DNA of 64,000 nucleotides from Candidatus Magasanikiibacteriota bacterium (GCA_016182085.1 JACOYB010000006.1:88980-152979), one strand, 5' to 3'. Positions 31,202-57,327 are shown, numbered from the stretch's first letter. A program made the numbers and translations. The notes: a model not told the origin generated them from the sequence alone.

Positions 31202-31425
31202 CTTAATTTAGCAAAAATAATATAAAAAAGCCTTGACAAGAAGGTTTTTTTGTGATATCATTTTTTATTCAATAATAACTGTCCTTTATAAATAAGAGCC
31301 TTTATTCTAGCTTATTTTAAATAAAAAATAATTTATAATGAAGGCTGGTATACCAGATCTTCCTCTTTGCCATGGTGGTAAGGAGTAAACCCTTTACAAA
31401 AAGGGTAGATAGAAAGGAAGCCGCT

Positions 31426-31926
31426 ATGAAGAGCGTCTTTCGCACATTGGCACATTTACAGGAGCAGCTCGGTGAGCAGTGCTTTGCGGAGCTGTTGAGT
31501 TCAGACAACACTCGCGCTGTACGGAAGTTCGCCATCAAGCTGGCTTTAGCGAAACTCCCTACCGAGATCACTCTTGGTCGGCGTAGGTACGAAGTCCTCA
31601 GCTTCCACAAGCCAGGGGAAGAAGAGTATGTCGACAGTGATACCATGGTCAGCAGGACTGCAGAGATGAATGCCAGCCTCGATGCCAAGGAGCGACGGTA
31701 TATCCTCAAACATCAGGCTGATTTCCCTCCAGAATGCCGTATCGTTAGTTTCTTCTTCACTAACGACTTCCGGCTGGGTTCTGCGCCAGCGTGGTCAAAG
31801 GAGCGTCCGAAGCAGATGTGTAGCATCGGCTGGAGCTACGGTTCGGATTCCTGGCTTGAGAGTTGGCAGCCCCTGGAAGGCAGGGTGTACGATGTGAATT
31901 GTCAAGTTCTCCGTCCTAAGATGTGA
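31426..31926 (+). CDS. hypothetical protein encoded on a high-G+C island
   Basis: ORF track 31372..31926. AAAGGAAG SD lies 6 nt before the ATG at 31426. Composition is strikingly more G+C-rich than all neighbours. No recognisable domain. Confidence 0.45.
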   Translation: MKSVFRTLAHLQEQLGEQCFAELLSSDNTRAVRKFAIKLALAKLPTEITLGRRRYEVLSFHKPGEEEYVDSDTMVSRTAEMNASLDAKERRYILKHQADFPPECRIVSFFFTNDFRLGSAPAWSKERPKQMCSIGWSYGSDSWLESWQPLEGRVYDVNCQVLRPKM

Positions 31927-33215: not shown

Positions 33216-33361
33216 GGTGTTAAGTTAGTTATGGGTAGAACTAGGTTTAATTATTTTAAATAACAGCCTATCTTAGCAGAGTTTTCCCGGCTTGTCAACC
33301 CGTATTCTGGGGGGCAGTTCGTTTGATTTTTTTCCTTAATTTTAGTATTATACTAGTCGTT

Positions 33362-35953
33362 ATGACCGAATTGTCCAAGGCCTACGAGCCAAAGCAGTAC
33401 GAAGATGCAATCTATAAAAAATGGGAAGAATCAGGGTTATTTAACCCTGATGTTTGTGTTGAGAAAGGGGTAACAGAGCCAAAATCAGAACATTTCTCTA
33501 TTGTTCTGCCACCACCCAACGTTACTGGTACCTTGCATATGGGCCATGCTGCCATGCTGGCCATAGAAGATGTAATGGTGCGATACCACCGCATGAAGGG
33601 TGACCGTACACTATGGGTGCCTGGTACCGACCATGCTGCTATTGCTACCCAGGCCAAGGTAGAAAAGTTACTGATAGAGAATGAAGGCAAAACCAAATAT
33701 GATTTAGGAAGACCAGAATTTCTCAAACGAGTAGAGAAATTTGCTCAAGAAAGTCACGACACGATTGTAAATCAGGCCCGCAAAATGGGCGCATCTTTGG
33801 ATTGGAGCAGGGAAGCCTATACTTTGGATGAAAAAAGAAATTTGGCCGTGCGTACGGTGTTTAAAAAAATGTATGATGATGGGCTTATTTATCGCGGGCA
33901 CCGCATTGTAAATTGGGATCCAAAAGGTCAGACAGTTATCTCGGATGATGAAATTGTTTATGAAGAAAGAAAAAATAAGTTCTATACATTTAAGTATGGT
34001 CCGTTTGAGATAGGTACAGCCAGACCAGAAACAAAATTTGGTGATAAGTATGTGGTAATGCATCCGGATGATAAGAGGTATAAAAAATGGAAACACATGC
34101 AAAAAATTACCGTGGAATGGATTAATGCTCCGATTGAGGCGACTGTTATTAAAGACCCAATGATTGATATGGAATTTGGTACGGGAGTTATGACAATCAC
34201 CCCTTGGCATTCCCACGAAGATTTTGCGTTGGCAGAAAAATATAAATTAGATAAGGAGCAAATTATTGATAAAGAAGGAAAGTTATTGCCAATCGCGCAA
34301 GAATTTTCTGGAATGAAAATTACCGAAGCAAAAGATAAAATAGTTGAAAAATTAAAAACTAAAGGTCTGCTCGTTAGTGTAGATGAAAATTATATTAATA
34401 GAATTGCAACTGCCGAAAGAACCGGTGGTGTTGTAGAGCCTCAAGTTATGGAGCAATGGTTTGTAAACGTAAATAAACCTGTAAAAGAACGAGGCAATAA
34501 GACATTGAAAGAATTGATGCAGGACGTAGTAAAAAATAAGAAAATAGAAATAGTGCCTGATCATTTTGAAAAAACATATTTCCATTGGATAGATAATCTG
34601 CGTGACTGGTGTATTAGCCGTCAGATTTGGTTTGGACACCAGATTCCGGTTTGGTATAAAGGCGAAGAGGTTTATGTTGGTGTTGATGCTCCGGCAGGTG
34701 ATGGTTGGCAGCAAGACTCAGACACTTTGGATACTTGGTTTTCTTCTGGTCTGTGGACTTTTTCTACCTTGGGTTATCCAGATTTAAAGGCAGAAGATTT
34801 AAAAAACTATCATCCAACATCAGTAATGGAAACTGGTTATGATATCTTGTTTTTCTGGGTGGCGCGTATGATTCTTATGACCACCTATGTTTTGGGTGAT
34901 GTGCCGTTTAAAACTGTATACTTGCATGGACTAGTTCGAGACGAGCAAGGAAGAAAGATGAGTAAATCTTTGGGTAATGTTATCAATCCGCTAGATATGA
35001 TTGCCAAGTATGGTACAGATGCCACGCGCTTGTCTCTGTTGCTTGGAAATACACCTGGCAATGATATGAAGTTATCCGAAGAAAAAATTGCTGGCTTTAG
35101 AAATTTTACCAATAAACTTTGGAATATTTCTAGGTTTATGTTGTTAAATATCGAAGAGCCAAAAATAGACGTTAAAGAACCAAAAGCAAAAACTTTGGCT
35201 GATGAATGGATTTTGGAATCGCTGGAGATTATGAAATCTTTAGTTGAAGGCAGTATTGTAAAGTATAATTTTGCAATAGCAGGAGAAATGCTAAAAGAAT
35301 TTACATGGAATCATTTAGCAGATTGGTACTTGGAAATAGCAAAGGTAGAGGGTGGGAAGTCAGAAATTTTAAATTATATTTTAAACAATATTCTGAAGTT
35401 ATGGCATCCGTATATGCCATTTGTAACTGAATCAATTTGGCAGGAAGTTTATGGGGAGGGTAGGTCGCTAATGGTAGAAAAATGGCCATCGTCAGTACAT
35501 AGCTTAGGTTCATTTGGAGATGAAAGAAATGTGGACTTTTTAATCGTTAAAGAAGTGATAGAAAAAATTCGTTCTCTTAGGGCTGAATACAAAATTGAAC
35601 CAGCAAAAAAGATAGGTGCAAAAATTAATATTGGAAAGAAAGAAAAAGTAGTAAAAGATAATGAAGATATAATTAAAGCTTTAGCTCGGTTAGAAAAGTT
35701 AGAGTTTGTAGAATCTGGAGCAGAAATTGCTTTGGATTTGGCTGGGGCAGTAGATGTAGAAAAAGAAAAGCCAAGACTAGAAAAAGAAATTGCCGAAATA
35801 AAAAAGTATGTAACTGGTTTGGAAAATAAAGTATCAAATAAAGAATTTGTAGATAATGCGCCAAAAGCAGTAGTAGAAAAAGAACAAGAAAAATTAAGTG
35901 AAGCACAAAGTAAATTAGCTAAATTACAAGAACAACTTGCTAACCTAAAATAA
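33362..35953 (+). CDS. valS: valine--tRNA ligase
   Basis: PPPNVTGTLHMGHA (HIGH) and KMSKS motifs. C-terminal coiled coil. ATG 33362 preferred over 33323. Confidence 0.9.
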   Translation: MTELSKAYEPKQYEDAIYKKWEESGLFNPDVCVEKGVTEPKSEHFSIVLPPPNVTGTLHMGHAAMLAIEDVMVRYHRMKGDRTLWVPGTDHAAIATQAKVEKLLIENEGKTKYDLGRPEFLKRVEKFAQESHDTIVNQARKMGASLDWSREAYTLDEKRNLAVRTVFKKMYDDGLIYRGHRIVNWDPKGQTVISDDEIVYEERKNKFYTFKYGPFEIGTARPETKFGDKYVVMHPDDKRYKKWKHMQKITVEWINAPIEATVIKDPMIDMEFGTGVMTITPWHSHEDFALAEKYKLDKEQIIDKEGKLLPIAQEFSGMKITEAKDKIVEKLKTKGLLVSVDENYINRIATAERTGGVVEPQVMEQWFVNVNKPVKERGNKTLKELMQDVVKNKKIEIVPDHFEKTYFHWIDNLRDWCISRQIWFGHQIPVWYKGEEVYVGVDAPAGDGWQQDSDTLDTWFSSGLWTFSTLGYPDLKAEDLKNYHPTSVMETGYDILFFWVARMILMTTYVLGDVPFKTVYLHGLVRDEQGRKMSKSLGNVINPLDMIAKYGTDATRLSLLLGNTPGNDMKLSEEKIAGFRNFTNKLWNISRFMLLNIEEPKIDVKEPKAKTLADEWILESLEIMKSLVEGSIVKYNFAIAGEMLKEFTWNHLADWYLEIAKVEGGKSEILNYILNNILKLWHPYMPFVTESIWQEVYGEGRSLMVEKWPSSVHSLGSFGDERNVDFLIVKEVIEKIRSLRAEYKIEPAKKIGAKINIGKKEKVVKDNEDIIKALARLEKLEFVESGAEIALDLAGAVDVEKEKPRLEKEIAEIKKYVTGLENKVSNKEFVDNAPKAVVEKEQEKLSEAQSKLAKLQEQLANLK

Positions 35954-35957
35954 CTTT

Positions 35958-37142
35958 ATGTCAGTAAATACCGGCGCGCAAAAAATCGAGGAGCTGTTAT
36001 CTAGGGGTGTAGAAAATATTTATCCGAAAAAAGAATTTTTGGAATCCAGGCTAAAATCCGGTGAGCAATTAACTTTGTATACCGGCTATGATCCAACTGC
36101 GCCGTCGCTTCATATTGGCCATGGTATTACCATGCTTAAACTGCGCCAATTTCAAGATTTGGGGCACAAAATTATTATGCTTATCGGAGATTTTACCGGC
36201 ATGATTGGCGACCCTACAGACAAAACTTCAGCCAGACAAAAATTAACCCGCAAACAAGTTTTGGAAAATTGCAAAAATTATAAAAAACAAGCAGAGGCTA
36301 TTTTGAATTTCAAAGGTTCAAACAAAGTAGAAGTAAAGTTTAATAGTAAATGGCTTGGTAAAATGAGTTTTGAAGATGTGGTAGAACTATCATCGCATTT
36401 TACTGTGCAAAGAATGTTGGAACGAGATATGTTTGAAAACAGAATGAAAGAAGAAAAGCCAATTTACCTTCATGAATTTTTGTATCCGCTTATGCAAGGC
36501 TATGATAGCGTGGCAATGGATGTGGATGGAGAAGTGGGTGGCAATGACCAGACATTTAATATGTTGGCCGGCCGAACGCTGATGAAAGGTTTAAAAAACA
36601 AAGAAAAATTTGTACTCACTACCAAGTTATTAGTAGATGCCAGTGGAAAGAAAATGGGCAAAACCGAAGGCAACATGGTTTCTCTTTCCGATAAACCGGA
36701 AGATATGTTTGGCAAAGTTATGAGCTGGACAGACGAAATGATGAGCAAAGGATTTGAGCTATGCACCACTTTGCCAATGGATGAGGTAAAGAAGTTGGAA
36801 TCATCTACGCCAAATCCGCGTGATCTAAAATTAAAATTGGCCTTCGAGATTGTAAAAACATTTTTAGGAGAAAAGTTTGCCAAGTCTGCGCAAGAGAATT
36901 TTCACAGGGTTTTTCAAGAAAGATCTAAACCGCAAGAAATTCCAGAATTAAAACCAAGCGTCAATGATATTATTACAGTTTTGGTGGAGTCGCAAATTTG
37001 CAAGAGTAAATCCGAAGCGCGCCAGGTAATAGCCCAGGGCGGGGTAAAAATAAATGATAAGAAGGTAGAAGCTATAGACGTTCAGGTAAAAGCGGGCGAT
37101 GTAGTGCAAAAAGGCAGTAGATTTTTTGTGAAAATTGTTTAG
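35958..37142 (+). CDS. tyrS: tyrosine--tRNA ligase
   Basis: YTGYDPTAPSLHIGHG (HIGH), KMGKT (KMSKS) and C-terminal S4-like domain. Confidence 0.85.
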   Translation: MSVNTGAQKIEELLSRGVENIYPKKEFLESRLKSGEQLTLYTGYDPTAPSLHIGHGITMLKLRQFQDLGHKIIMLIGDFTGMIGDPTDKTSARQKLTRKQVLENCKNYKKQAEAILNFKGSNKVEVKFNSKWLGKMSFEDVVELSSHFTVQRMLERDMFENRMKEEKPIYLHEFLYPLMQGYDSVAMDVDGEVGGNDQTFNMLAGRTLMKGLKNKEKFVLTTKLLVDASGKKMGKTEGNMVSLSDKPEDMFGKVMSWTDEMMSKGFELCTTLPMDEVKKLESSTPNPRDLKLKLAFEIVKTFLGEKFAKSAQENFHRVFQERSKPQEIPELKPSVNDIITVLVESQICKSKSEARQVIAQGGVKINDKKVEAIDVQVKAGDVVQKGSRFFVKIV

Positions 37143-37200
37143 GGAGTAGGGCGTAAGAAGTAAGGAGTAGTGAGTAGAGAAAATTTATCCTTTTTGTGGT

Positions 37201-37292
37201 TCCTCCCCCTATAAGGGGGAGGATAAAGGAGGGGGTTTAAAGACAATAAAAATAAAACCCCACCCTCTGTCCCTCCCCTTATAGGGGAGGGA
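37201..37292. repeat. compound inverted repeat: two ~38-nt arms, each with an internal 9-bp G/C hairpin (TCCTCCCCC-tataa-GGGGGAGGA; TCCCTCCCC-ttata-GGGGAGGGA)
   Basis: The arms are ~85% identical in inverted orientation and separated by AAAGACAATAAAAAT. Preceded by a purine-rich (AGTAG)n tract at 37143-37180. Confidence 0.5.
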
Positions 37293-37331
37293 GCCACCTA
37301 CTAGTAGTCGTGGCAATGACGAATAAAAATT

Positions 37332-39107
37332 ATGGAAAAATTTCTTGGTGAAATAAAAAAAGTATTAAATAAAGTCGGAGTGTCTGGTGAAATTGATCTG
37401 ACAACCCCGCCAAATCCGGAAATGGGTGATTTTGCCTTTGCTTGTTTTAATATTGCTAAAGAGTGGAAAATGAGCCCAGTAGAGGCGGCCAAAACGATTG
37501 AAGCAAGAATCAAGAATTATGAATTAAGAATTATAGACAGAGTACAAGCCATGGGCCCGTACGTTAATTTTTATTTAAAAGCATCAGAGTTAGCTAAAAT
37601 TGTGCTTGGTGAAATTCAGAAAAAAGGTAAAAAATACGGCATAAATAATTCCGGCAAAGGTAAAAAAGTTTTGATTGAGTATCCGTCCAATAATACCCAC
37701 AAAGAATTTCATATTGGCCACCTGCGCAATGTTTGTATTGGAAATTCTTTGGTGCAGCTTTATGAACAAAATGGCTATAAAGTTTATCCGGTAAATTATC
37801 TAAATGATTTTGGCAATCATGTGGCCAAATGTTTGTGGGGCTTAATTAAATTTCATAAAGATGAAAAACCGCCAGCCAATAAACAAAAATGGCTGGGAGA
37901 AATTTACGCGGAGGCTTCAAAAAAATTAACTGAACCCGATGCTTTGGCTATTAAAACACCTGGTTTGGCAGAGCAGGTAGGCGATATGGGTAAAGCTGAA
38001 GATCTTGAATATACAGTACAGAAATATAGAGAAGAAGTCGCTGAAATCCAAAAGCAAATAGAGAGCCAAGACCCAAAGATCTGGAAAGTATTTATGCAAA
38101 CCAGGCAGTGGAGCATAGATAAGTTTGAAGAAATATTTAAACAGTTGGGTGTAGAGCATAAAGCCGTTTTTTATGAAAAAGACCTAAAGGATAAAGGGCA
38201 AAAAATGGTAGATGATTTGCTAAAAAAGGGTATAGCCCAAGTAGGCGAGGGTGGAGCGATTATTATAGATTTAAGCGAATATAAACTTGATATAGCATTG
38301 CTTCGCAAATCAAATGGCGCAGGACTGTATTTAACTAGCGACTTGCCGCTAGCCATGGAAAAGTTCAAAAAATGCAACGCAGACGAAAGTATTGTGATTA
38401 CCGGCACGGAACAAAATTTTTATTTCAAACAACTTTATAAAATTTTGGAACTAATTGGGTTTAACAAAAAGTTAACTCATATTGGCTATGGACTCGTAAA
38501 TCTAAAAGAAGGAAAAATGTCTTCGCGCTTAGGCAATGTTATTTTGTACGAAGATTTATATGCAGAAGTTTTTGCAATGTTAAAAGCCGAATCCGTGGAA
38601 CGACATCCGGATTGGAGTGAGAAGAAGATAAACAACAATGTAAGTGTGCTGGCTATGGCCGCCCTCAAGTTTGATATGCAAAAGCACGAAGCTGCCAAAA
38701 ATATTACTTTTGATGCCAAAGAAGCCACTTCTTTTGAAGGGTTTAGCGGTCTTTATGTACTCTATGCCATCGCCAGAATAAATAGCATTTTAAAACAATC
38801 AAAAAAATCCAAAGCGAAAATAGATTATAATCTGCTGGATAAGCCGGAAGAAAAACACCTGGTATTATTTTTGGCAAAATATGAAGAAGTGGTTAAAAGC
38901 GCTTTGATGAACTACAACCCATCGGAAATTACTCGTTATTCTTTTGATTTAGCGCAATCATTCAATGATTTTTATAACAAACATAGTATTCTGAAAGCGG
39001 AGACAGAAAGTTTGGTGGCCGCTCGTTTGCAGTTAGTTGGCGCCGCCAAAAATGTTTTGGAAAATTCGCTTGGATTGCTCACAATTGGAACTGTAGAGGA
39101 AATGTAA
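37332..39107 (+). CDS. argS: arginine--tRNA ligase
   Basis: HIGH-class motif region (EFHIGHLRN), full ArgRS length, C-terminal anticodon-binding DALR-like region. Confidence 0.9.
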   Translation: MEKFLGEIKKVLNKVGVSGEIDLTTPPNPEMGDFAFACFNIAKEWKMSPVEAAKTIEARIKNYELRIIDRVQAMGPYVNFYLKASELAKIVLGEIQKKGKKYGINNSGKGKKVLIEYPSNNTHKEFHIGHLRNVCIGNSLVQLYEQNGYKVYPVNYLNDFGNHVAKCLWGLIKFHKDEKPPANKQKWLGEIYAEASKKLTEPDALAIKTPGLAEQVGDMGKAEDLEYTVQKYREEVAEIQKQIESQDPKIWKVFMQTRQWSIDKFEEIFKQLGVEHKAVFYEKDLKDKGQKMVDDLLKKGIAQVGEGGAIIIDLSEYKLDIALLRKSNGAGLYLTSDLPLAMEKFKKCNADESIVITGTEQNFYFKQLYKILELIGFNKKLTHIGYGLVNLKEGKMSSRLGNVILYEDLYAEVFAMLKAESVERHPDWSEKKINNNVSVLAMAALKFDMQKHEAAKNITFDAKEATSFEGFSGLYVLYAIARINSILKQSKKSKAKIDYNLLDKPEEKHLVLFLAKYEEVVKSALMNYNPSEITRYSFDLAQSFNDFYNKHSILKAETESLVAARLQLVGAAKNVLENSLGLLTIGTVEEM

Positions 39108-39112
39108 AATAT

Positions 39113-40150
39113 TTGTTGAATATTTTGTTTATGGCGCAAGACAATTATAAGTCGTGGCTTATCAATACAGAAGATTTTCCTAAGGAGTCTGCGCTACCGG
39201 CGCAGCTTAAATTTTTATTGCAGTTTGCGATTTTGGCTCCCTCTACGCACAATTCTCAGCCTTGGCAGTTCAAAATAGATAGCAACAAGATTTATATTTT
39301 GCCAAATTTTGATAAAGCGCTGCCTGTGGGAGATAAGGAAAACCATTTTCTTTTTTTAAGTTTGGGTTGCGCGTTAGAAAATTTATTAGTCGCGGCGCAG
39401 TATTATGGTTTTAGTTTTATAATAAAATATCCTTCTTCTGGTGACAAAAAAATTGAAATTACTCTTACAAAAATAGAAAAGTCGGGCGTTGCAGAAGAAA
39501 GCCTGGTTTCTTATATCGCCAAGCGCATTACGAATCGTCATAAGTTTACAGATAAGTTGCCGGCAGAAGAATTTTTAAATACAGTTCGTAGTTTGGGCAC
39601 AGAAAGTATGAGTGTAGATGTGCTTTCTCCGGGAGAAAAAAATAATAAGGTAAAACAGCTAGTGGGGAGAATCACTCCCAAGTTATTAAATGAGCCAAGT
39701 TTTCGCAGGGAATTATCCGGCTATGTAAAAACAAATATTACAAAATCAAAATTTGGGATGCCGGCTTTTGTGATGGATGTTCCCAACTTTTTATCTCTTT
39801 TTGTGCCAACCATACTAAAGTTTGTAAATATTGAAAAATTAAATAAAAAAAAGCAGGAGGGCGCCATAAGCGCCGCGATTTTTATTGTGATTAGCGCTAA
39901 AAATAACAACGAAGAAGATTGGGTTAAAACCGGACAAGCTTTTCAGAAAATTAATTTGTTGGCTACAAAATTTAATTTATTTACTCATCCAATGGCCGCG
40001 CCTTTACACGATATAGAAAGCCGTAAGGAATTGCAGGAAATATTACAGACCAGCTTTAATCCGCACTTTTTGTTTCGTCTTGGGTACGGAGCGGTAGAAC
40101 CAAAGCATAGTCCGCGAATGACAGTAGACGATTGTATGATCGTAGAATAG
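39113..40150 (+). CDS. nitroreductase-family protein (double nitroreductase fold, Acg-like)
   Basis: APSTHNSQPWQF matches the nitroreductase FMN-site signature. The 345-aa length suggests tandem half-domains. Confidence 0.5.
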   Translation: MLNILFMAQDNYKSWLINTEDFPKESALPAQLKFLLQFAILAPSTHNSQPWQFKIDSNKIYILPNFDKALPVGDKENHFLFLSLGCALENLLVAAQYYGFSFIIKYPSSGDKKIEITLTKIEKSGVAEESLVSYIAKRITNRHKFTDKLPAEEFLNTVRSLGTESMSVDVLSPGEKNNKVKQLVGRITPKLLNEPSFRRELSGYVKTNITKSKFGMPAFVMDVPNFLSLFVPTILKFVNIEKLNKKKQEGAISAAIFIVISAKNNNEEDWVKTGQAFQKINLLATKFNLFTHPMAAPLHDIESRKELQEILQTSFNPHFLFRLGYGAVEPKHSPRMTVDDCMIVE

Positions 40151-40156
40151 TAATTT

Positions 40157-41227
40157 ATGGATATTTCTAAGTATAAAAATTTAAAAGAGTTTGATAGCCA
40201 TGCTTTGGTTGTAGAGTTGGATGAGCCAAGCGTTGGTTTAAAAGGTTTTATAGCTATAGATAGAAAAGCCGAAAATTTTCCAGCCTTGGGAGCTACTCGT
40301 TTGTGGAAGTATCCTTTGGAAGAGGACGCTTTAAATGATGCTCTGCGTTTGGCAAAGTTAATGGGTAAAAAATCAGCGATGGCAGGCCTGCCTTATACAG
40401 GCGCCAAAGCGGTGCTTATGTTGCCCGAAGAAGGAATAAAGAATCGCGAAGAATATTTTAAAGTATATGCTCAAAAAGTAAATGAACTCTCTGGTCAGTT
40501 TATTACCGGTACGGATGTTGGTTTGACCGATAATGATCTAGAGATAATGAGCAAAAATTCTAAATTTGTAATTGGAATGAATGTTCCGGCGGCGTATTAT
40601 ACAGCTGTCGGTGTTTTTAATGTTATTAGAGAAAGTTTGGAATATAAATTTGGCAGTGAAAATATTTCCAGCAGAACTTTTGCTATACAAGGTTTGGGAA
40701 AAACGGGTTATGAATTATTAAAATTACTGTATGCAGAAGGGGCAAAAATATTTGTTTCCGAAATAAATATAGATATTTTAGAACAAGTTTGTCGTGATTT
40801 TCCCCTGGTAAAAAAAGTTTTACCGGCAGATATACATAAGCAAGAAGTGGATGTTTTTTGTCCTTGCGCTATGAGTCATTCTATAAATAGTCGCACGGTC
40901 AGCGAATTGAAGTGTGTGATTGTGGCTGGTTCTGCAAACAACCAGCTAGAAGATGAAGAGGCGGGAGAAAAACTGCATAAGATGGGCATTGTGTATGCTC
41001 CGGATTATTTATCAAATTCCGGCGGTTTGATTAGCGTGGTAGATCAATTTGAAAATAAAAAACATGACAATAAAAGAATATTATTAAAATTGAGCAAGAT
41101 ACCGGCAGTTTTACGAGCTATTTTTTTAAGAAGTGAAAAAGAGCGCAGATCGATTAGTAGTGTTGCAGACGATATGGTGCAAGAATCTTTAGTCAAAGAG
41201 GTTAGTGTTGGGGTGCGTAGTTATTAA
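40157..41227 (+). CDS. Glu/Leu/Phe/Val-family amino-acid dehydrogenase
   Basis: LGATRLWKY...AGLPYTGAKAV (catalytic-Lys region of LeuDH/PheDH type) and GLGKTGYEL Rossmann motif. Confidence 0.6.
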   Translation: MDISKYKNLKEFDSHALVVELDEPSVGLKGFIAIDRKAENFPALGATRLWKYPLEEDALNDALRLAKLMGKKSAMAGLPYTGAKAVLMLPEEGIKNREEYFKVYAQKVNELSGQFITGTDVGLTDNDLEIMSKNSKFVIGMNVPAAYYTAVGVFNVIRESLEYKFGSENISSRTFAIQGLGKTGYELLKLLYAEGAKIFVSEINIDILEQVCRDFPLVKKVLPADIHKQEVDVFCPCAMSHSINSRTVSELKCVIVAGSANNQLEDEEAGEKLHKMGIVYAPDYLSNSGGLISVVDQFENKKHDNKRILLKLSKIPAVLRAIFLRSEKERRSISSVADDMVQESLVKEVSVGVRSY

Positions 41228-42767
41228 ATATAGTATGAATAAATATTTTTTAAGCTTATATAAAAAAAGCCTTGTTTCCAAGCTATCTTTTCTTAAAAGA
41301 AAAGATTCTGAAGTTATGGACAGAGTGGGGGAAAAGGAATCAGTTAAATTGTTTAACTTTGTAAGTAGGCGCGTGGTTGCGTACCAAAAATTTTTAAAAG
41401 AAAATAAAGTAGCTATCAAAAAGATTGTAAATATTAAAGACTTTAAAAAATTACCATTAATTTCAAAAGAAAATTATATAAGAAAGCACGATTTAGCAGA
41501 TTTGCTCCCCCCCAAAGAATTTGCCAACGCTACTACTTTTTCTGCCACTTCCGGCTCTACAGGTGAGCCGACGTTTTTTCCGCGCGGCGAAGATCAGGAC
41601 AAGAATTATGAATTTATTTCTGAAATATTTTTAACAAATCAACTCGGTCTGTCCAAGAAAAAAAGTACGCTTGTTATAATAGGTTTTGGACTGGGTGTTT
41701 GGATAGGCGGTATTTTTACTTATAAAAATTTTAATAAATTGGCCAGCAAGGGCTACAAGATATCTATATTGCCGGTCGGTCCTCAAAAAGACATGTTTCT
41801 AAAGTCTCTAAAGAAATTTGGAAGATTGTTTGATCAAGTTATTTTGGCAGGTTATCCGCCTTTTATCAAGGATATAGTTGATGAAAGCGCTGGTTATGGC
41901 ATTGATTGGGCTAAATGCAATACAAAAATTTTAACCGCAGCCGAGAGCTATTCGGAAGATTTTAGAGACTATATTGCAAAAAAAATTAAAGCCAAAAATA
42001 TTTTTACTGATTTTATAAATATATATGGAACAGTCGAGTTGGGAACTATGGCGCACGAAACCCCTTTGGCAATTTTGATACGCAGATTAGCCTGCAAAAA
42101 TAAAGATATTTTTAAGGCAGTTTTTAACAATTCTGCCAGGCTTCCTACGTTGGGGCAGTATCATCCGTATCTGGTTTATTTCGAAGAGTTAGAGGGCGAA
42201 TTGGTAGGAACGGGTGTTGGTTCATCCATACCATTAATTCGTTACAAATTTGCCGATCGCGGGGGCGTTATTTCTTTTAAAGAGATGGTAGGGCGCCTAA
42301 AGAGTGTGGGGGTAGATATTATAAAAGAAGCTGCAAAAAATGGAATTGGTAAAACTGTTCTTAATCTTCCGTTTGTATATGTATATGAGAGAAGTGATTT
42401 GGTCGTAAATTTAATGGGAATAAATATATATCCGGAGTATATTAAAAGCGGGTTGCAAAAAAGCGGCATAGAAGAAAAAGTTACCGGTAAATTTTCTATG
42501 GCGACTAAAAATGATAAAAATCAGGATCAGTTTTTGGAAATTAATGTGGAATTAAAAAATGGCGAAGCGCCCTCATCGCAGTTGGTAAAATTAATTGAAA
42601 ATTTTGTTGTGATTTCCTTGCAAGAAAAATCCACGGAGTATGATTATTTGTACAAAAATAGTTCGGAAGAATCCAGGAAAAAAATAACTCCCAAAGTTTT
42701 ATTATTTAATTATGAAGATAAAACCTATTTTGCTCCCGGAGCAAAGCAGAAATGGGTCTTAAAATAA
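41205..42767 (+). CDS. adenylate-forming enzyme of the PaaK / CapK / coenzyme F390 synthetase-like family
   Basis: TSGSTGEPTFFP resembles the SSGTTG.P phosphate-binding loop of PaaK-type ligases. Start may be ATG 41235. Confidence 0.5.
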   Translation: MLGCVVIKYSMNKYFLSLYKKSLVSKLSFLKRKDSEVMDRVGEKESVKLFNFVSRRVVAYQKFLKENKVAIKKIVNIKDFKKLPLISKENYIRKHDLADLLPPKEFANATTFSATSGSTGEPTFFPRGEDQDKNYEFISEIFLTNQLGLSKKKSTLVIIGFGLGVWIGGIFTYKNFNKLASKGYKISILPVGPQKDMFLKSLKKFGRLFDQVILAGYPPFIKDIVDESAGYGIDWAKCNTKILTAAESYSEDFRDYIAKKIKAKNIFTDFINIYGTVELGTMAHETPLAILIRRLACKNKDIFKAVFNNSARLPTLGQYHPYLVYFEELEGELVGTGVGSSIPLIRYKFADRGGVISFKEMVGRLKSVGVDIIKEAAKNGIGKTVLNLPFVYVYERSDLVVNLMGINIYPEYIKSGLQKSGIEEKVTGKFSMATKNDKNQDQFLEINVELKNGEAPSSQLVKLIENFVVISLQEKSTEYDYLYKNSSEESRKKITPKVLLFNYEDKTYFAPGAKQKWVLK

Positions 42768-43837
42768 TTTTTATGCAGTTTCCAATTATATTGGCTGAAG
42801 GCAGTTACAACCAAGCAGATTTGGATTTGTTAATAAAAAATAACGAGATCGTAAAAACGGTTGATATTTATGCTCAGCAAATGACCGAGTATTTTGAAAT
42901 TTCAAACCCAGCCTTGAAGGGGAGTACAGATTTGCCCGCGGCCGCAAAAAAGTATGTGGATGAAAATATGAGCAAGGGAAAGCTCTTTGGTAGTTGGATA
43001 TATTATCCTTGGAGCAGGGTTTTGGTTCACTCGGTAACGCAGGATAAATATTTTGAACTGCGAACTAACCGTAATAAAAATTTAATAGATGCAAAAGAAC
43101 AAGAAAAGCTGTATAATTTAAATGTGGGCGTGCTCGGGCTATCTATAGGGAGCAGTATGGCCATTGGTTTGGCATATAGCGCCATAGCAGGGCAAATGAA
43201 GTTGGCAGATTTTGATACTCTGTCTACTTCTAATTTAAACAGGTTGAAAGCGAAGATGTCCGATGTGGGAAGAAAAAAAATAGAGATAGCCGCGGAACAG
43301 ATATTTGAAATAAATCCGTATCAAAATCTAGAGCTATTTGAAAATGGAGTAGATAAAAATTCGTTGGATAGTTTTTTGGCAGAAAACCCTAAACCGGAAT
43401 TAATTTTTGAAGCAATTGATGATTTTGAAATAAAAATTCGTCTGCGTATGGCGGCGCGAAATCTGGGTATTCCGGTTATTATGTTGACCAACTTGGGCGA
43501 TAGCTTGCTTGTAGATGTGGAAAGATACGACAAGGATAAAACAACCCCTATTTTAAATGGGATGATTGAGCAGTCGGTGGTAGAAGAGATTTTGTCTGGG
43601 CGCTGTAGTGAGGCGGATAAAAATAGATTTGCCGTACAGGTGGTGGGTGTAGAAAATGTGCCCAAGAGAGCGATGGATTCTCTAAAAGAGATAGGGTTAA
43701 GCCTTGTCGGTCGCCCGCAGCTTATGAGCACAGTTACGATAGGGGGCGGTCTAGCTTCTTTTTTAGCTAGGAAGATTGCTCTTGGAGAAGATTTGCCAAG
43801 TGGAAGAAAAATAATAAAGTGGGATGAGCTAATTTAA
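42752..43837 (+). CDS. ThiF/MoeB/E1-like adenylyltransferase with ~95-aa N-terminal extension
   Basis: RNKNLIDAKEQEKLYNLNVGVLGLSIGSSMAIGLAYSAIAG...ADFDTLSTSNLNR aligns with the ThiF nucleotide-binding region. No C-terminal CxxC pair. Confidence 0.6.
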   Translation: MGLKIIFMQFPIILAEGSYNQADLDLLIKNNEIVKTVDIYAQQMTEYFEISNPALKGSTDLPAAAKKYVDENMSKGKLFGSWIYYPWSRVLVHSVTQDKYFELRTNRNKNLIDAKEQEKLYNLNVGVLGLSIGSSMAIGLAYSAIAGQMKLADFDTLSTSNLNRLKAKMSDVGRKKIEIAAEQIFEINPYQNLELFENGVDKNSLDSFLAENPKPELIFEAIDDFEIKIRLRMAARNLGIPVIMLTNLGDSLLVDVERYDKDKTTPILNGMIEQSVVEEILSGRCSEADKNRFAVQVVGVENVPKRAMDSLKEIGLSLVGRPQLMSTVTIGGGLASFLARKIALGEDLPSGRKIIKWDELI

Positions 43838-43841
43838 TTTT

Positions 43842-44717
43842 ATGGATGCGGAGAAAAAACTCGCAGACAAAATGGGGGTGAGCTATAAAATTAATCAGTG
43901 TTTAATAGACGGTTTTAACATTAATTATTTGGTGGCCGGAGAAGGCGAGCCGTTATTGCTCATACATGGGGCAAACATAGGCTGGGGAATGTGGTATTTA
44001 AATATACCGGAGTTGTCAAAAAAATATAAAGTTATCGCCCTAGACTTGCCTGGTGCCGGCGTTTCCGATAGCTTAGATTTTAAAAATATTGACCTGGAAA
44101 AAATATTTGTTCAGTTAATAGAAAACTTTTTGCATTTTTTAGAAGTAGATAATATAAGGGTGGTTGGGCATTCTTTCGGCGGTTGGATCGCCATGAAGCT
44201 GGCTATTGTGAGTAAGATAAATATTAAAAAAATTGTACTAAGCGATTCTTTGGGGTTTAGTACAAGTATTCCGGCATCTCAGTGGCCTGCAACGGTTGGC
44301 GCGCTCGCAAAATTTATTTCTAAAACATTTTTTAGAGCTACAAGATCAAACATGGATAGGTTTTTAAGCAGCGCTTTTTATAGTAAAACGTCTGTATCCG
44401 AATTGTTTTATCAGTATTATTTTGAATCATTGCTTGGTTCCGATATGCGCCACCCTTTATTATTTTTTAACGGGCTGTCATCTTTTTTGAGAATGCGGAA
44501 AGAATTAGATTTGAGAAGTAGCCTTAGTTTAATTAAGCAGCCGGTATTGGTGGTATGGGGAAGCGAAGACAAAAACGTAGTATATAAAAATAGTAAAGAT
44601 TTTTTTAAACTAATACCAAACCATAAGGTGGAGATTATAAAAGAGGCAGGGCATGTGCCGTCTTTAGAAAAAAGTAATTTATTTAACAGTTTGGTTTTAA
44701 ATTTTTTTCAAGATTAA
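43842..44717 (+). CDS. alpha/beta-fold hydrolase
   Basis: HGANIGW oxyanion region and GHSFGG nucleophile elbow. Confidence 0.6.
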   Translation: MDAEKKLADKMGVSYKINQCLIDGFNINYLVAGEGEPLLLIHGANIGWGMWYLNIPELSKKYKVIALDLPGAGVSDSLDFKNIDLEKIFVQLIENFLHFLEVDNIRVVGHSFGGWIAMKLAIVSKINIKKIVLSDSLGFSTSIPASQWPATVGALAKFISKTFFRATRSNMDRFLSSAFYSKTSVSELFYQYYFESLLGSDMRHPLLFFNGLSSFLRMRKELDLRSSLSLIKQPVLVVWGSEDKNVVYKNSKDFFKLIPNHKVEIIKEAGHVPSLEKSNLFNSLVLNFFQD

Positions 44718-44727
44718 TTAGTATAGT

Positions 44728-46347
44728 ATGTTGGGGGACGTTTTATATTTTAAAGAAGTTATCGTTGGGGCCGTGGTGATTTGTAATATACTTATTACTT
44801 ACGCGGTATATGTAAGTAATAAAAAAAGCGCCACAAATAGAGTATTTTTGCTGTTAGGCCTAGTCATCTCTTTTTGGCTTTTAGCCATGTATTTATCGGT
44901 AAATCCTCAGGTAAACCTATTTTGGACGCGCCAGAGCGCTTTTTGGGCCACGTTTATGAGCTTTTTGCTATTTTTGCTGGCCTATGTTTTGCCGGGAGAA
45001 AGGTTTTTGTTAAGTAAAAAGAACCTTTTTTATACAGTCGCACCAACGATTTTTATAACAGCCTTGACATTTACGCCTTATGTTTTTGAAAAAATAACTA
45101 TTAGCGCCGCAGGTTCAAAGGTGGCTGTGGGATTTGGGATAATTCCATTTAGTTTACTCACAACATTTTTTAGCGTATTCGCTGTTTATTTATTATTAAA
45201 AAAATTACACAAGTCATCACAAGTGGAGCGTCGCCAGCTGGGACTTGTTTTAACAGGATTTTTCTTAATGCTCGGACTCATCATTTTTACGATTCTAATC
45301 CCCGTTATTTTTTTAAGAGATAATTTTTTTGTTCAGTTTGCGCCGGTGTATGTTTTTTTCTTCTTGGCCGCTACCGCTATCGCAATCATAAAGTATCATT
45401 TGTTTAATATTAAAGTTATTGCCACAGAGGTCTTAGTATTGATTTTGATAATGGTTTTATTAATTGAAGGCGCTCTCTCCGGTTCTATATTTACAGTTAT
45501 TTTTAAAGTCTCATTTGCGATTTTGGTAGGTATTATCGGTATTTTATTGGTACGAAGCGTGCAAAAAGAAATTAAACAAAAAGATGAATTATCTAATCTG
45601 GCTGCTTCTTTGGAAAAAGCCAATACGCGTTTGCAAGAACTGGATAAACAGAAAACCGAATTTTTAACAATTGCCTCTCATCAGCTGCGCACCCCGCTTT
45701 CTATTTTAAAAGGATATATAGAGCTGATAAAAGACGGTAGTTATGGCAAGATTGAACCTGCTACAGCCAAAGTATTGGATGATATGGATCTTAACAACGA
45801 GCATTTGGTAAAGTTGGTAGATACGCTACTCGATATTACTCGCATCGAACAGGGCCGCACTAAATATTCATTTGCCATGAATAATATCTGTGCTTTAATT
45901 GACGAATCAGTAAGCGACTTAAAATTAAAAGCTAAAGAAAAGAAAATGAAATTAGTTTGGACATGTCCTAAGAAAATGACTGATGTGTGCTGTGATCAAG
46001 AAAAAATGCACCATGTTATTTATAACTTTATTGATAACGCCTTAAAGTATAGCGAGAAAGGTTCTGTAAAAGTAACGCTGAAAGAAGAAGGTGGGGGCAT
46101 TGCGATGAAGGTAGTCGACAATGGGATTGGCTTTAATAAAGTGGATGAAAATAATTTTTTTCATAAATTTTATCGCGGTGACAATGTACGGACTATTGGC
46201 ATCAGCGGCACCGGTTTGGGGCTCTATGTCTGCCGAAAATTCGTGGAAGCGCATAGCGGCCGGGTGTGGGCTCATAGCGAAGGATTGGGAAAAGGCAGTG
46301 AATTTGGCTTTTGGATTCCGGTTAAACCCCCCGCTCCAGCCGGGTAG
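44728..46347 (+). CDS. multi-pass membrane sensor histidine kinase
   Basis: ~7 N-terminal TM helices. H-box TIASHQLRTPL, N-box DNALKY, G1 VDNGIGF, G2 GTGLGL. No response regulator in window. Confidence 0.75.
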   Translation: MLGDVLYFKEVIVGAVVICNILITYAVYVSNKKSATNRVFLLLGLVISFWLLAMYLSVNPQVNLFWTRQSAFWATFMSFLLFLLAYVLPGERFLLSKKNLFYTVAPTIFITALTFTPYVFEKITISAAGSKVAVGFGIIPFSLLTTFFSVFAVYLLLKKLHKSSQVERRQLGLVLTGFFLMLGLIIFTILIPVIFLRDNFFVQFAPVYVFFFLAATAIAIIKYHLFNIKVIATEVLVLILIMVLLIEGALSGSIFTVIFKVSFAILVGIIGILLVRSVQKEIKQKDELSNLAASLEKANTRLQELDKQKTEFLTIASHQLRTPLSILKGYIELIKDGSYGKIEPATAKVLDDMDLNNEHLVKLVDTLLDITRIEQGRTKYSFAMNNICALIDESVSDLKLKAKEKKMKLVWTCPKKMTDVCCDQEKMHHVIYNFIDNALKYSEKGSVKVTLKEEGGGIAMKVVDNGIGFNKVDENNFFHKFYRGDNVRTIGISGTGLGLYVCRKFVEAHSGRVWAHSEGLGKGSEFGFWIPVKPPAPAG

Positions 46348-46427
46348 TTGGTTTTTTTATAAAAATAGTATATAATTACTCTGTATAATTTAATCATTTT
46401 TTCACTACATAATTAATATCCATTACT

Positions 46428-46898
46428 ATGATTTTCCAAAGAAATTCCTCCAAAGTGGCTCCAGAAAATAATGAGCCAGAAGTTCTTGATGAATCGCGAC
46501 CGGATATTCATGATGAAGTGGAAACCGTGGTTGGTCCATCGGTAAATGTAGAGGGTGATTTTGCCTCCGAAGGAAATATCGTTGTAAAAGGAACGGTATC
46601 GGGCAGCGTGTTTACCAGCAAACATTTAACCGTGGAAATGGGCGCAAAGATTATTGCCAATGTCCGGGCAGGCAGCGCTACAATTGCCGGAGAGGTAAAG
46701 GGAAATATGAAAATTAAGGAGTCGCTTGAATTAACTTCCACGTCAAAAGTTATTGGCGATATAGACATGAAAGATTTGAGGATTGAATCCGGTGCGACGC
46801 TGTATGGTAAAGTAACCATGCCGGGAGTAGAAGCTGAAAAACCGATCAAAACAAAAACTTTTAAAAAATCCGAAGAAGCCGCGCCGCTTTTTGGTTAA
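46428..46898 (+). CDS. bactofilin-family cytoskeletal protein
   Basis: Repetitive beta-helical V.G...G.V.G..I pattern (IVVKGTVSGSV, ATIAGEVKGNM, KVIGDIDM..LRIESGATLYGKV) typical of DUF583. Confidence 0.6.
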   Translation: MIFQRNSSKVAPENNEPEVLDESRPDIHDEVETVVGPSVNVEGDFASEGNIVVKGTVSGSVFTSKHLTVEMGAKIIANVRAGSATIAGEVKGNMKIKESLELTSTSKVIGDIDMKDLRIESGATLYGKVTMPGVEAEKPIKTKTFKKSEEAAPLFG

Positions 46899-46934
46899 AT
46901 TGGTTTGAAAAAGGAGTAAGAGCCTACTGGTGTT

Positions 46935-47699
46935 ATGTATGTGTATATCTACGACAATTTTTTACGTCAAAAAAATTTTCTTCCCATCGTCCACTCCATG
47001 GAAGTCGTACTTACCGACTACGGCATAGCTGGAAAAATTTTACGCTTGCAGAATTACACGGATTGTAAAACTATTATTGAGGATGAGATAAAGCGCGGCG
47101 CCAAAACCATCGTGATTGTTGGCAACGACGCCACGTTTGGACAAATTCTGTCTCGCAGCGCCACCGCCAATTGTACGTTTGGTTTTTTGCCTGTGGGACC
47201 AAACAACACCATTGCCGAAGTCTTGGGCATTCCGGTTGGAGTAGAAGCCTGTACGGTGCTTTCACGCCGCCGCAAAGAGTTTTTGGATGTGGGGTGGATG
47301 AATAACAGATATTTTGTTTCCCAGCTAAAAGTCATGCCTTCTAATTTGGAGGTAGTTTATGATGAGCGATTTAAAGTAACGGCCACTGATAAAATGGAAG
47401 TAATTGTTTGTAATTTGCAGCCATTTTTTTGGAAGCGGGATAAAAAAGATAAAGAACAGCACGTGGTACATCCCCAAGATGGCAAGCTGGAAGCCTTTAT
47501 TAGGCCATTGACAAAAAGCGGCTGGTGGGGATATAAATATGAGGAACCAAGCATTTTTCCCTTTGAAGAAATGATAATTACCGGTCGGGAACCCTTTACC
47601 GTGGAAGCCGACGGAAAGATATCTAAAGAGATTAAGGTAAAAATAAAGCTGGCTCATAGCAAGGTAGAGATGATTGTTGGCAGGGATAGAAAATTTTAA
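46935..47699 (+). CDS. diacylglycerol-kinase-catalytic-domain (YegS/BmrU-like) lipid kinase, with variant Gly-rich loop
   Basis: IYDN, VIVGNDATFGQI (in place of GGDGT) and FGFLPVGPNNTIAEVLGIP match DAGK_cat topology. Confidence 0.6.
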   Translation: MYVYIYDNFLRQKNFLPIVHSMEVVLTDYGIAGKILRLQNYTDCKTIIEDEIKRGAKTIVIVGNDATFGQILSRSATANCTFGFLPVGPNNTIAEVLGIPVGVEACTVLSRRRKEFLDVGWMNNRYFVSQLKVMPSNLEVVYDERFKVTATDKMEVIVCNLQPFFWKRDKKDKEQHVVHPQDGKLEAFIRPLTKSGWWGYKYEEPSIFPFEEMIITGREPFTVEADGKISKEIKVKIKLAHSKVEMIVGRDRKF

Positions 47700-47707
47700 A
47701 TATTAAT

Positions 47708-47791
47708 GCCCAGGTGGCGAAATTGGTAGACGCACTACCTTGAGGTGGTAGCTCTCGCAAGGGAATGGAGGTTCGAGTCCTCTCCTGGGCA
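47708..47791 (+). tRNA. tRNA-Leu (anticodon GAG), long variable arm, no encoded CCA
   Basis: Cloverleaf folds by hand: acceptor GCCCAGG/CCTGGGC, anticodon stem CTACC/GGTAG, loop TTGAGGT, T-loop TTCGAGT. Confidence 0.8.
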
Positions 47792-47861
47792 CTGAAGAAG
47801 TCTCTCCTTTAACTTTTTAGAGAAAAGTGCTACTATTTAAGTAGTATTTTTAACATTCTTT

Positions 47862-48140: not shown

Positions 48141-48689
48141 ATGGCACATTCCGGTACAGCTTTAATTGATCCGTATAAAATTTTTGAAAAAATATCTCTG
48201 TCCCAAGGGCAGCGCGTGGCCGATTTGGGCTGTGGCCGAACGGGCCATTTTGTGTTTCCGGCAGTGAAGGTAGTGGGAGACAAGGGTATAGTCTATGCCG
48301 TAGACGTGGTAAAGAATATTTTAGAAAGCATAAAAAGCCTGGCTCGGAGCGAAGGTTTTGATAACGTACAGACCGTATGGTCTGATATAGAGTTGCCGGG
48401 CAAGACCCCTATCCCGGATGGCTCCCTTGACGTATGTTTTTATGTTAATGTATTATTTCAGCTAAAGAATAAGCAAGCTTCTTTGCAAGAAGGCGCGCGT
48501 ATGTTAAAAAAGGGCGGATACCTGGTGATAGTAGATTGGGCAAAAAAACTCGGCATGCTTGGGCCGTCGCCGGAACTGATGGTTAATCCGGACGAAATAA
48601 CCAGTTTAGCCGCAAAACAGAATTTAAAATTTATAGATAAGTTGCTCCCTGGAGATTATCATTTTTCTTTAATCTTTGAAAAAGTTTAG
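48141..48689 (+). CDS. class I SAM-dependent methyltransferase
   Basis: VADLGCGRTGHF (motif I) and acidic motif II (AVDV). Confidence 0.6.
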   Translation: MAHSGTALIDPYKIFEKISLSQGQRVADLGCGRTGHFVFPAVKVVGDKGIVYAVDVVKNILESIKSLARSEGFDNVQTVWSDIELPGKTPIPDGSLDVCFYVNVLFQLKNKQASLQEGARMLKKGGYLVIVDWAKKLGMLGPSPELMVNPDEITSLAAKQNLKFIDKLLPGDYHFSLIFEKV

Positions 48690-49098
48690 TATGAATATCG
48701 CAAATTTGTTTACGTTGGATTATTGGTTTGGCCAGCCGTTTGCGGCTCAGGGGTCGTCGCTGTGGTTGCTCATCGGCGGATTTTTATTGTGTATCGTAGC
48801 GGGTTTAATTTGTAAAATAGCATCTCAGTTTAAAGAAGAAAAATTTAAAAAAATAATCTTAAAAAGATTAGGTAACTTAGGCACGGTCATGGGTTTTTTG
48901 GGATTGGTGTGGATGTTCTTCCGTCAGGAAGGGGCTGTATTTTTAGCTTGGCGTTTTTGGTTATTATTGTGGCTGGCAGGATTTTTCTGGCGGTTATCAA
49001 TTATAGTGCGTTACATGGTTAAAAGAGTTCCCGATATCAAGCAGGAAGAAGAAAAGCGCGTTCAAATAGAAAAATACTTGCCAAAATCAAATAAATAA
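48676..49098 (+). CDS. hypothetical membrane protein
   Basis: 140-aa ORF with 3 predicted TM helices. Overlaps the preceding gene by 14 nt. Confidence 0.4.
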   Translation: MKKFSMNIANLFTLDYWFGQPFAAQGSSLWLLIGGFLLCIVAGLICKIASQFKEEKFKKIILKRLGNLGTVMGFLGLVWMFFRQEGAVFLAWRFWLLLWLAGFFWRLSIIVRYMVKRVPDIKQEEEKRVQIEKYLPKSNK

Positions 49099-56900: not shown

Positions 56901-57327
56901 TGAGGGAAGTTACTCCCCCTTAAACCGCACCCAAGAAGATGTATTAAAGAAGAAAACGAGCCGAAGCCTGTTGTTCCCTCTAACACACCTCCATGCTTGT
57001 CGTGGATACGGGATGATACATGTTAGCGTAACGTTTAGATCTCTACCATGCACTACCCGCTTCCACTCTTTGCCAGTAGTAATTTTACTACCAGGAGGGG
57101 TTATTTGCCCCGCAGCGAACCTAAGTTCTTCTGCCGAGGTTATCCGATACCTACTAACTTGGGGTATCTATATTTAGATAACGCTGAATTATATCAGAAT
57201 ATTACAGTTTTGTCAAGGGGGGTGGGGTGGATAAAGTTATATCTTAGCTAATTTTAGCCAAAATACAACTAAAAAAGACCCTTATGCAGGGCCTTTTAGC
57301 TGTTAAAACAGGGTTATGTACAGGAAA

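Follow-up and report, generated by a model that had tools for sequence, protein, structure and literature searches.

A conserved gene cluster of Patescibacteria with a Rv1355c/TrzS-type ThiF protein, a PaaK-fold ligase and a membrane sensor kinase: a candidate oxazolone-type pathway

What could be made by an Acg-like flavin-dependent oxidase (FDO), an amino-acid dehydrogenase, a PaaK-fold ligase, a ThiF-like protein and an alpha/beta hydrolase that are encoded next to each other, directly downstream of argS, in a bacterium of the candidate phyla radiation (CPR)? The question is raised by a block of five genes (39113–44717) in a 64,000-nt stretch of a Candidatus Magasanikiibacteriota contig (JACOYB010000006.1:88980-152979), hereafter the window. 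The reading that we favour, with a degree of confidence somewhat above even, is that the block is part of a CPR version of an oxazolone-type small-molecule pathway whose genes are co-transcribed with that of a dedicated sensor kinase of the membrane. The cyclase/desaturase core of such a pathway is already known, whereas the part that forms the substrate, the occurrence in this group of bacteria and the coupled sensor kinase are new.

Composition and conservation of the cluster

All five open reading frames (ORFs) are found on the plus strand at exactly the coordinates given in the initial annotation, and its family assignments for all five are confirmed by Pfam and NCBIfam profile searches and, for the ligase, by a structure model. 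The features of the locus, with the kinase gene that follows the block, are:

39113..40150, plus strand: Acg-type FDO (alternative ATG 39131; NF047509)
40157..41227, plus strand: predicted Leu/Phe/Trp-type NAD(P)-dependent amino-acid dehydrogenase (PF00208, PF02812)
41205..42767, plus strand: adenylate-forming ligase of predicted PaaK fold (probable start ATG 41235, 510 aa)
42752..43837, plus strand: ThiF-like putative ATP-dependent cyclase of the Rv1355c/TrzS family (alternative ATG 42773; NF005901)
43842..44717, plus strand: alpha/beta hydrolase, similar to enol-lactonases and meta-cleavage product (MCP) hydrolases (PF00561, 89 bits)
44728..46347, plus strand: seven-transmembrane (7TM) sensor histidine kinase (HisKA_7TM, HisKA and HATPase_c; Pfam)
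46336..46351, plus strand: terminator-like hairpin with T7 overlapping the kinase stop codon (hairpin scan; weak)

The tight packing of the five genes described initially stands, but the overlaps reported at 41205/41227 and 42752/42767 hinge on the choice of start codons: in the NCBI models of identical proteins, the ligase starts at ATG 41235 (510 aa) and the ThiF protein at ATG 42773 (354 aa), which leaves gaps of 7 and 5 nt. The identical ligase (P0001) is annotated in a metagenome-assembled genome (MAG) of Candidatus Magasanikbacteria, and the ThiF protein of the same MAG (P0121) is identical over the 354 aa of the shorter NCBI model. Only 5 nt separate the argS stop codon from the start of the block, and none of the intergenic gaps throughout 39107–46347 exceeds 10 nt. 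Taken alone, packing and co-direction are not informative as operon evidence because nearly the entire region from valS to a DAGK-like gene (33323–47699) is encoded on the plus strand with small gaps. What goes beyond chance is conservation: this set of genes is found again in 80 loci of reference genomes and another 80 from metagenomes.

The reference-genome loci come from a search for ligase relatives in a single genome for each GTDB species, with the metagenome loci collected besides. The ligase has relatives in at least 238 species genomes, almost all of them Patescibacteria. Nearly all of the 80 reference loci come from records titled as Patescibacteria lineages or without a phylum name, and include Magasanik-, Nealson-, Kaiser-, Lipton-, Harrison-, Nomura-, Doudna- and Wolfebacteria, ‘Saccharibacteria’ and Paceibacteria; the named sources outside Patescibacteria number only three, two ‘Gammaproteobacteria’ MAGs and a single-cell genome of Margulisiibacteriota. 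Among the 41 loci that extend at least 5 kb on each side of the ligase gene (fully flanked loci), a ThiF gene lies within 6.5 kb of the ligase in 39, a FDO gene in 35, a histidine kinase gene also in 35, a dehydrogenase gene of the ELFV family in 29, and an alpha/beta hydrolase gene in two. The cluster genes are co-directional in 328 of 346 cases, the 266 junctions examined in other loci have a median gap of 6 nt, and 193 of them measure 20 nt or less.

The initial view of these genes as non-housekeeping enzymes that act together, in a combination outside the textbook pathways, is upheld. Their recurrence as a unit is likewise conserved, but the boundaries of the proposed five-gene unit have to be redrawn: the unit reaches the kinase gene (44728–46347), and the hydrolase gene is present in only 4 of the 80 reference loci, invariably between the ThiF and kinase genes. 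Gene order is variable. Denoting the genes for the ThiF protein, dehydrogenase, ligase, FDO, kinase and hydrolase by T, D, L, F, K and H, respectively, the orders TDLFK, DLTFK, DLFTK and LTFK are observed, along with FDLTHK in the lineage of the window; the dehydrogenase gene almost always immediately precedes the ligase gene, and the kinase gene is almost always the last in the cluster. Among individual loci, L054 carries two tandem ligase-ThiF pairs (4685–7401 and 9953–12235), and in L121 an L-F-T arrangement is flanked by kinase-domain genes on both sides.

Four loci (L003, L022, L030 and L065) share the flanks that the cluster has in the window (35958–47699), with tyrS-argS upstream and the genes for a bactofilin and the DAGK-like protein downstream. 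Within these common flanks, the order differs among the five loci (FDLTHK, DLFTK and DTFLK), which points to rearrangement in place, and the shared flanks themselves indicate that the cluster is old and vertically inherited in this lineage rather than a recent island. Accordingly, the block can no longer be described as an accessory island: the cluster is widespread in Patescibacteria, related Magasanikbacteria-like genomes keep the same flanking genes, and the G+C content of the block (0.36) is not lower than that of the adjacent valS-argS region (0.35–0.38). A horizontally acquired island is ruled out by the G+C content, equal to that of the neighboring aminoacyl-tRNA synthetase genes, together with the kept flanks.

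The cluster genes are also found fused to each other, in independent natural fusions. Two proteins combine the dehydrogenase with the ligase (P0054, 878 aa; P0281, 847 aa), the ligase and ThiF protein are joined in either order (ligase::ThiF in P0248, 863 aa; ThiF::ligase in P0315, 880 aa), and a 1242-aa protein (P0286) comprises dehydrogenase, ligase and ThiF domains in an order that fits the reaction order proposed below.

Predicted activities of the encoded enzymes

The ThiF protein matches NF005901 (‘Rv1355c family’, a model of 722 positions) with 286 bits over positions 15–339, the next best model scoring 72 bits, and the same model is the best match of ThiF orthologs from four divergent loci (218–332 bits). 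The Pfam ThiF match begins at residue 107 and is preceded by an extra, family-specific N-terminal domain of ~95 aa, which the NF005901 span takes in. The residues that are invariant in the family, namely G129/S131/G133 of the Gly-rich loop, D155, N161–R164, K176 and D223, can be aligned with the motifs by which TcdA, the top match of the family profile among solved structures, binds nucleotides; the correspondence of D223 to D217 of TrzS is drawn via the common ThiF motif and not from a direct alignment. The structure model of the protein has a mean predicted local distance difference test score (pLDDT) of 88.9.

The FDO scores 205.5 bits (cutoff 199) against NF047509, which identifies it as an Acg-family flavin mononucleotide (FMN) oxidoreductase, and also matches positions 370–654 of NF005901 (Rv1355c/TrzS). 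Its best PDB match is Acg (2ymv), with a monomeric double-nitroreductase fold. Two FDO subtypes occupy the same position in the clusters, one TrzS/PRK14851-like (~185–250 bits; L006, L048 and L005) and the other Acg/Rv3131-like (the window, L018 and L066). Judging from these profile matches, an enzyme of the Rv1355c/TrzS type is present here in two separate parts, the ThiF protein and the Acg-type flavoenzyme.

Rv1355c, or TrzS, catalyzes a cyclization that depends on ATP and a desaturation that depends on O2, which convert N-acyl tryptophan to N-acyl tryptazolone (PMC12856293). The same chemistry is performed by the separate proteins TyzB and TyzC in Mycobacterium tuberculosis (PMC10404671) and by the fused OxzB in Pseudoalteromonas (bioRxiv 10.1101/2020.06.11.147165). 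In the characterized systems, the ThiF protein adenylates the carboxylate of the N-acyl amino acid, the amide oxygen closes the oxazol-5-one, and the flavoenzyme desaturates the C-alpha/C-beta bond (PMC12856293, PMC10404671); according to a 2025 review, oxazolone formation is the only validated small-molecule reaction of ThiF-like enzymes (PMC12596934). We propose that the FDO of the window might be such a C-alpha/C-beta desaturase.

The ligase has no match in Pfam and only weak PaaK/F390 similarity, and falls far below the cutoff of the PaaK equivalog model TIGR02155 (39.4 bits vs. 646). Its predicted structure (pLDDT 87) is nevertheless that of the PaaK fold, with a template modeling (TM) score of 0.80, normalized to the target, and 14–16% identity to PaaK1 (2y27) in Foldseek; the matches include NatL2, AjiA1 and ClxA (TM 0.69–0.71, 13–17% identity). 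The motifs of adenylate-forming enzymes of the ANL/PaaK fold are complete, i.e., the P-loop, YGxxE, the Asp of RYRxxD, the hinge and the C-terminal Lys are all present, and the residues invariant in 28 ligase sequences (T105-S106-G107, Y264-G265/E268, R336-Y337/D341, R386 and K504) align with the PaaK motifs. This is a large family of ~505-aa proteins, almost all from CPR, with more than 3000 word-index matches and 485 clusters (50% identity, E ≤ 1e-30).

NatL2, AjiA1 and ClxA condense their substrates without coenzyme A (CoA). By analogy with these enzymes, we propose that the ligase could be a CoA-independent former of N-acyl amino acids that stands in for an N-acyl amino acid synthase (NAS). 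Such a synthase is present in all of the OxzAB, TyzACB, TrzAS and N-acyl dehydrotyrosine clusters (PMC12856293, PMC10404671, PMC12479983, bioRxiv 10.1101/2020.06.11.147165). None was detected in the window with Pfam, and none recurs in the 80 reference loci or is present among the 160 related loci overall; the sole acetyltransferase of the window is a generic 148-aa GNAT protein encoded 15 kb upstream among housekeeping genes.

The dehydrogenase matches both ELFV dehydrogenase domains (PF00208 and PF02812) and, by similarity, belongs to the hydrophobic-substrate (Leu/Phe/Trp) clade: the E-values are 5e-65 for a leucine dehydrogenase (LeuDH; 3vpx), 2e-54 for a tryptophan dehydrogenase (5b37), 1e-39 for phenylalanine dehydrogenase (PheDH) and only 1e-16 for glutamate dehydrogenase. 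The ScyB equivalog model is missed (245 bits, cutoff 600). The catalytic K72, K84 and D120 are invariant in 48 orthologs. The pocket contains Gly118 in all 48 and Leu291 in 45, in positions where the aligned LeuDHs have Ala (‘ITAEDVG’) and Val (‘GGVINV’), a pair that probably represents a PheDH-type signature with a larger pocket. We propose that this enzyme would supply a 2-oxo acid. Five loci (L056, L060, L061, L080 and L081) lack the dehydrogenase gene and have instead, directly upstream of the ligase gene, one for an aminotransferase of the branched-chain or HisC type, a replacement which suggests that the step supplied is the interconversion of an amino acid and a 2-oxo acid.

Apart from its PF00561 match, the hydrolase shows weak similarity to HsaD, BphD and PcaD. 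In L011 (12521–14389), a single 622-aa ORF consists of an Acg-type FDO (residues 29–336) fused to an alpha/beta hydrolase (~350–621), which ties this accessory enzyme to the desaturase step. Some clusters with NAS, ThiF and nitroreductase genes yield ring-opened N-acyl dehydrotyrosines rather than oxazolones (PMC12479983). The hydrolase is a lineage-specific accessory, and we propose that it might open or hydrolyze the ring of the product.

The sensor kinase and the remainder of the window

The 285-aa membrane domain of the kinase alone has homologs in 62 loci, typically with ~100 bits, and because the 7TM domain by itself matches across so many loci, the cluster kinases are orthologous sensors and not arbitrary kinases. 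For the reciprocal search of metagenome contigs, only the membrane domain was used, as an alignment of nine cluster-linked kinase sequences; the matches were at least 43% identical to the query. In the 46 loci where the sequence upstream of the kinase gene extends for at least 5 kb, this upstream region encodes the FDO in 44, the ligase in 41, the ThiF protein in 40 and the dehydrogenase in 20, with an aminotransferase in several others. The coupling of the kinase to the biosynthetic genes thus holds in both search directions. A stand-alone receiver domain is encoded within ~7–9 kb of the ligase gene in 26–28 of the 80 reference loci; in 18 loci it directly adjoins the cluster.

The hairpin followed by T7 at 46336–46351, on the kinase stop codon, could mark where the transcription unit ends, but the evidence is weak: 18 terminator-like sites were found compared with 14.3 in shuffled sequences. 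The counts obtained by scanning the region for promoters and terminators were at chance level.

The remaining genes of the window have housekeeping roles (ribosomal proteins, RF1, EF-Ts, glycolysis, ValRS/TyrS/ArgS, cell wall and SMC). Among them is a gene for a 2258-aa protein (7752–14528) with a Big_5 domain, four CarboxypepD_reg domains and two PG_binding_1 domains, which probably serves as a giant protein of the cell surface or for attachment, a type of interest for the episymbiotic CPR bacteria; downstream of it, a 625-aa protein with PG_binding_1 and fn3 domains is encoded (14745–16622). Two tandem paralogs of the cofactor-independent phosphoglycerate mutase (28047–29603 and 29624–31201) directly follow enolase, and the only tRNA gene of the window, tRNA-Leu(GAG) at 47708–47792, lies just downstream of the DAGK-like gene. 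A DUF5674 protein (19573–19920) and five ORFs of 114–184 aa without a Pfam match (17979–18380, 19913–20257, 31372–31926, 48676–49098 and 57284–57751) are interspersed with the housekeeping genes.

A candidate pathway, its alternatives and the known systems

Under the oxazolone-type scheme that we favour, the dehydrogenase, or the aminotransferase in some relatives, would turn a hydrophobic, probably aromatic, amino acid into the 2-oxo acid, which the PaaK-fold ligase would adenylate and join directly, without CoA, to the amine of a second amino acid. The ThiF protein would then cyclize the ligase product, the FDO would desaturate the cyclized product and, in the lineage of the window, the alpha/beta hydrolase might open or trim the labile ring. 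More speculatively, the 7TM kinase might sense the hydrophobic product or a related outside signal, in which case the cluster would be a cassette for the synthesis of a signal and its receptor. CPR organisms are generally reported to lack fatty-acid and cofactor biosynthesis, and an ATP-only ligase in place of an acyl-CoA-dependent synthase would suit such organisms. The second proposal of the initial annotation, whereby an acid is made and activated by the dehydrogenase together with the PaaK-like ligase, comes close to this scheme.

Several points weigh against the scheme. The main weakness is that we infer, from sequence, every chemical step past the resemblance of the ThiF protein and FDO to TrzS. 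The FDO desaturases known so far use O2, and many CPR bacteria are anaerobic. About 30% of the clusters show neither a dehydrogenase nor an aminotransferase, and some of the metagenome fusion proteins could be artefacts of gene calling or frameshifts. No response regulator was found in the window, either with phmmer using a cluster-linked receiver domain or with Pfam among the 48 window proteins. The FDO of the window is Acg-like, with 69 bits to the C-terminal half of TrzS vs. ~185 for most CPR orthologs, and the Acg-type FDOs of M. tuberculosis (FDO-B) have not been linked to oxazolones (PMC10404671). Finally, the ligase could be an ordinary CoA ligase that supplies an acyltransferase from another part of the genome.

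The synteny and the fusions would also be compatible with the synthesis of a diketopiperazine, whereby the ligase makes a dipeptide, the ThiF protein closes a 2,5-diketopiperazine (or an oxazolone) and the flavoenzyme dehydrogenates it in the manner of the cyclodipeptide oxidase AlbA. Dehydrogenation of cyclodipeptides at C-alpha/C-beta by enzymes of the nitroreductase fold is established chemistry, and the dehydrogenase or aminotransferase could run toward the amino acid. We consider this version unlikely given that adenylation of alpha-amino acids is not known for PaaK-family enzymes, that a cell which imports amino acids would hardly have to make its own to this end, and that the ThiF protein and most CPR FDOs are specifically nearest to the TrzS family.

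A route for the breakdown or salvage of aromatic or branched amino acids, in which the 2-oxo acid is converted to a CoA thioester and passed to the hydrolase and flavoenzyme while the kinase regulates the operon in response to the substrate, would account for the annotation of the ligase as ‘phenylacetate-CoA ligase’ in the sources and for the resemblance of the hydrolase to MCP hydrolases and enol-lactonases. Nevertheless, the score of the ligase against the PaaK model (39 bits vs. 646), the lack of any 2-oxo acid decarboxylase or oxidoreductase and of paa genes in the 160 loci, and the absence of the hydrolase from 76 of the 80 reference loci make this route quite improbable; it also leaves the TrzS-family ThiF protein and the ligase::ThiF fusions unexplained.

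Far less probable is the reading that came first in the initial annotation, namely tailoring of a RiPP (a peptide made by the ribosome and modified after translation), with an E1-like enzyme that adenylates a precursor peptide held by its N-terminal clamp and a nitroreductase that serves as a dehydrogenase of the thiazole/oxazole-modified microcin (TOMM) type. TOMM clusters do combine E1-like and nitroreductase-fold enzymes, and MccB and PaaA, the models for the clamp, are among the structural matches of the ThiF protein. However, both superpose over 221–231 residues of the ThiF core only; the predicted order of elements in the N-terminal domain is b-a-b-a-a-b-b, whereas that of the RiPP recognition element is b3-a3; and this domain falls within the Rv1355c model, the characterized members of which act on small molecules. 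Nor is there room for a precursor, considering the short gaps in the window and at most junctions elsewhere; apart from the receiver domains, no family of small ORFs of at least 70 aa recurs in the 80 loci, and YcaO, already noted as missing in the initial annotation, is absent from the window and from the recurrent neighbors. A sulfur-carrier or cofactor biosynthesis role of the MoeB/ThiF type (as in the old MoeY/MoeW names), or ubiquitin-like conjugation, can practically be dismissed: ThiF and MoeB models do match the ThiF protein, at 50–70 bits among scores of 35–71, but the equivalog cutoffs (152–376) are all missed widely, the protein contains just one Cys and lacks a CxxC zinc site, and no gene for a ThiS/MoaD or other ubiquitin-fold partner, E2 or JAB protein is found in any of the 80 loci.

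Returning to the oxazolone-type pathway, an extension that we regard as tentative and, on the whole, doubtful is that it underlies lineage-wide signaling in CPR, bacteria that can otherwise synthesize almost nothing, with a labile oxazolone or dehydro-amino-acid signal built from two amino acids by a CoA-independent route and the co-transcribed 7TM kinase as its receptor. De Rond et al. pointed out that oxazolones are labile, as many signals are, and speculated on a signal role (bioRxiv 10.1101/2020.06.11.147165). If true, this would be the first autoinducer-type synthase/receptor pair in CPR, possibly employed by cells of one population, or by symbiont and host, to communicate. The discovery of oxazolone natural products dates only from 2020–2025, and the wiring to one family of membrane sensor kinases is the first concrete, testable hint at a signaling function of this class. 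All known oxazolone pathways need an N-acyltransferase that uses acyl-CoA or acyl carrier protein (ACP), and the CPR cluster suggests that the substrate can be reached in a second way that needs only ATP, within a vast and uncultivated radiation that makes very few small molecules. Being small and soluble, the four or five enzymes could be expressed straight from synthetic genes, and the assignment would correct the widespread mis-annotations ‘phenylacetate-CoA ligase’, ‘tRNA threonylcarbamoyladenosine dehydratase’ and ‘molybdopterin/thiamine biosynthesis adenylyltransferase’. Our literature search, with most subscription journals outside its coverage, returned no description of the cluster and nothing that links oxazolones, ThiF/nitroreductase pairs or the ligase to CPR; members from CPR are not mentioned in the main text of the two M. 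tuberculosis papers (PMC12856293, PMC10404671).

Among the known systems, the autoinducer synthase/histidine kinase pairs CqsA/CqsS and LuxM/LuxN resemble the CPR cluster in the coupling of small-molecule biosynthesis genes to a kinase with a membrane-helix sensor suited to hydrophobic ligands. In contrast to these systems, to which there is no sequence relationship, ligand sensing in CPR is purely inferred, and the partner is often a stand-alone receiver, absent from the window. TcdA (CsdL), the tRNA t6A cyclodehydratase, is likewise of the ThiF type and performs an ATP-driven cyclization of an N-acylated (carbamoylated) amino acid moiety, but its substrate is a tRNA nucleoside, and it has neither an N-terminal extension nor a partner flavoenzyme. 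The AMP-ligases NatL2, AjiA1 and ClxA of benzoxazole pathways share the PaaK fold with the CPR ligase, which is ~80 aa longer, and differ in using aryl acids as substrates. OxzAB of Pseudoalteromonas rubra is comparable in its ThiF and nitroreductase chemistry on an N-acyl aromatic amino acid, but OxzB is one fused protein, OxzA uses acyl-CoA, and the system includes no kinase, dehydrogenase or ligase. TyzACB (Rv2336-2338c) and TrzAS (Rv1356c-Rv1355c) of M. tuberculosis make N-acyl tyrazolones and tryptazolones, respectively. These systems belong to Actinomycetota and not to Patescibacteria; the CPR cluster lacks the N-acyltransferase TyzA/TrzA and has instead the dehydrogenase, the PaaK-fold ligase and the 7TM kinase, and the FDO of the window is nearer to Acg/Rv3131 than to the TrzS subtype. 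What they have in common with the CPR cluster is an operon-like arrangement of a ThiF cyclase and an Acg-fold FDO of the Rv1355c family, encoded, as in the case of TyzB and TyzC, by separate genes.

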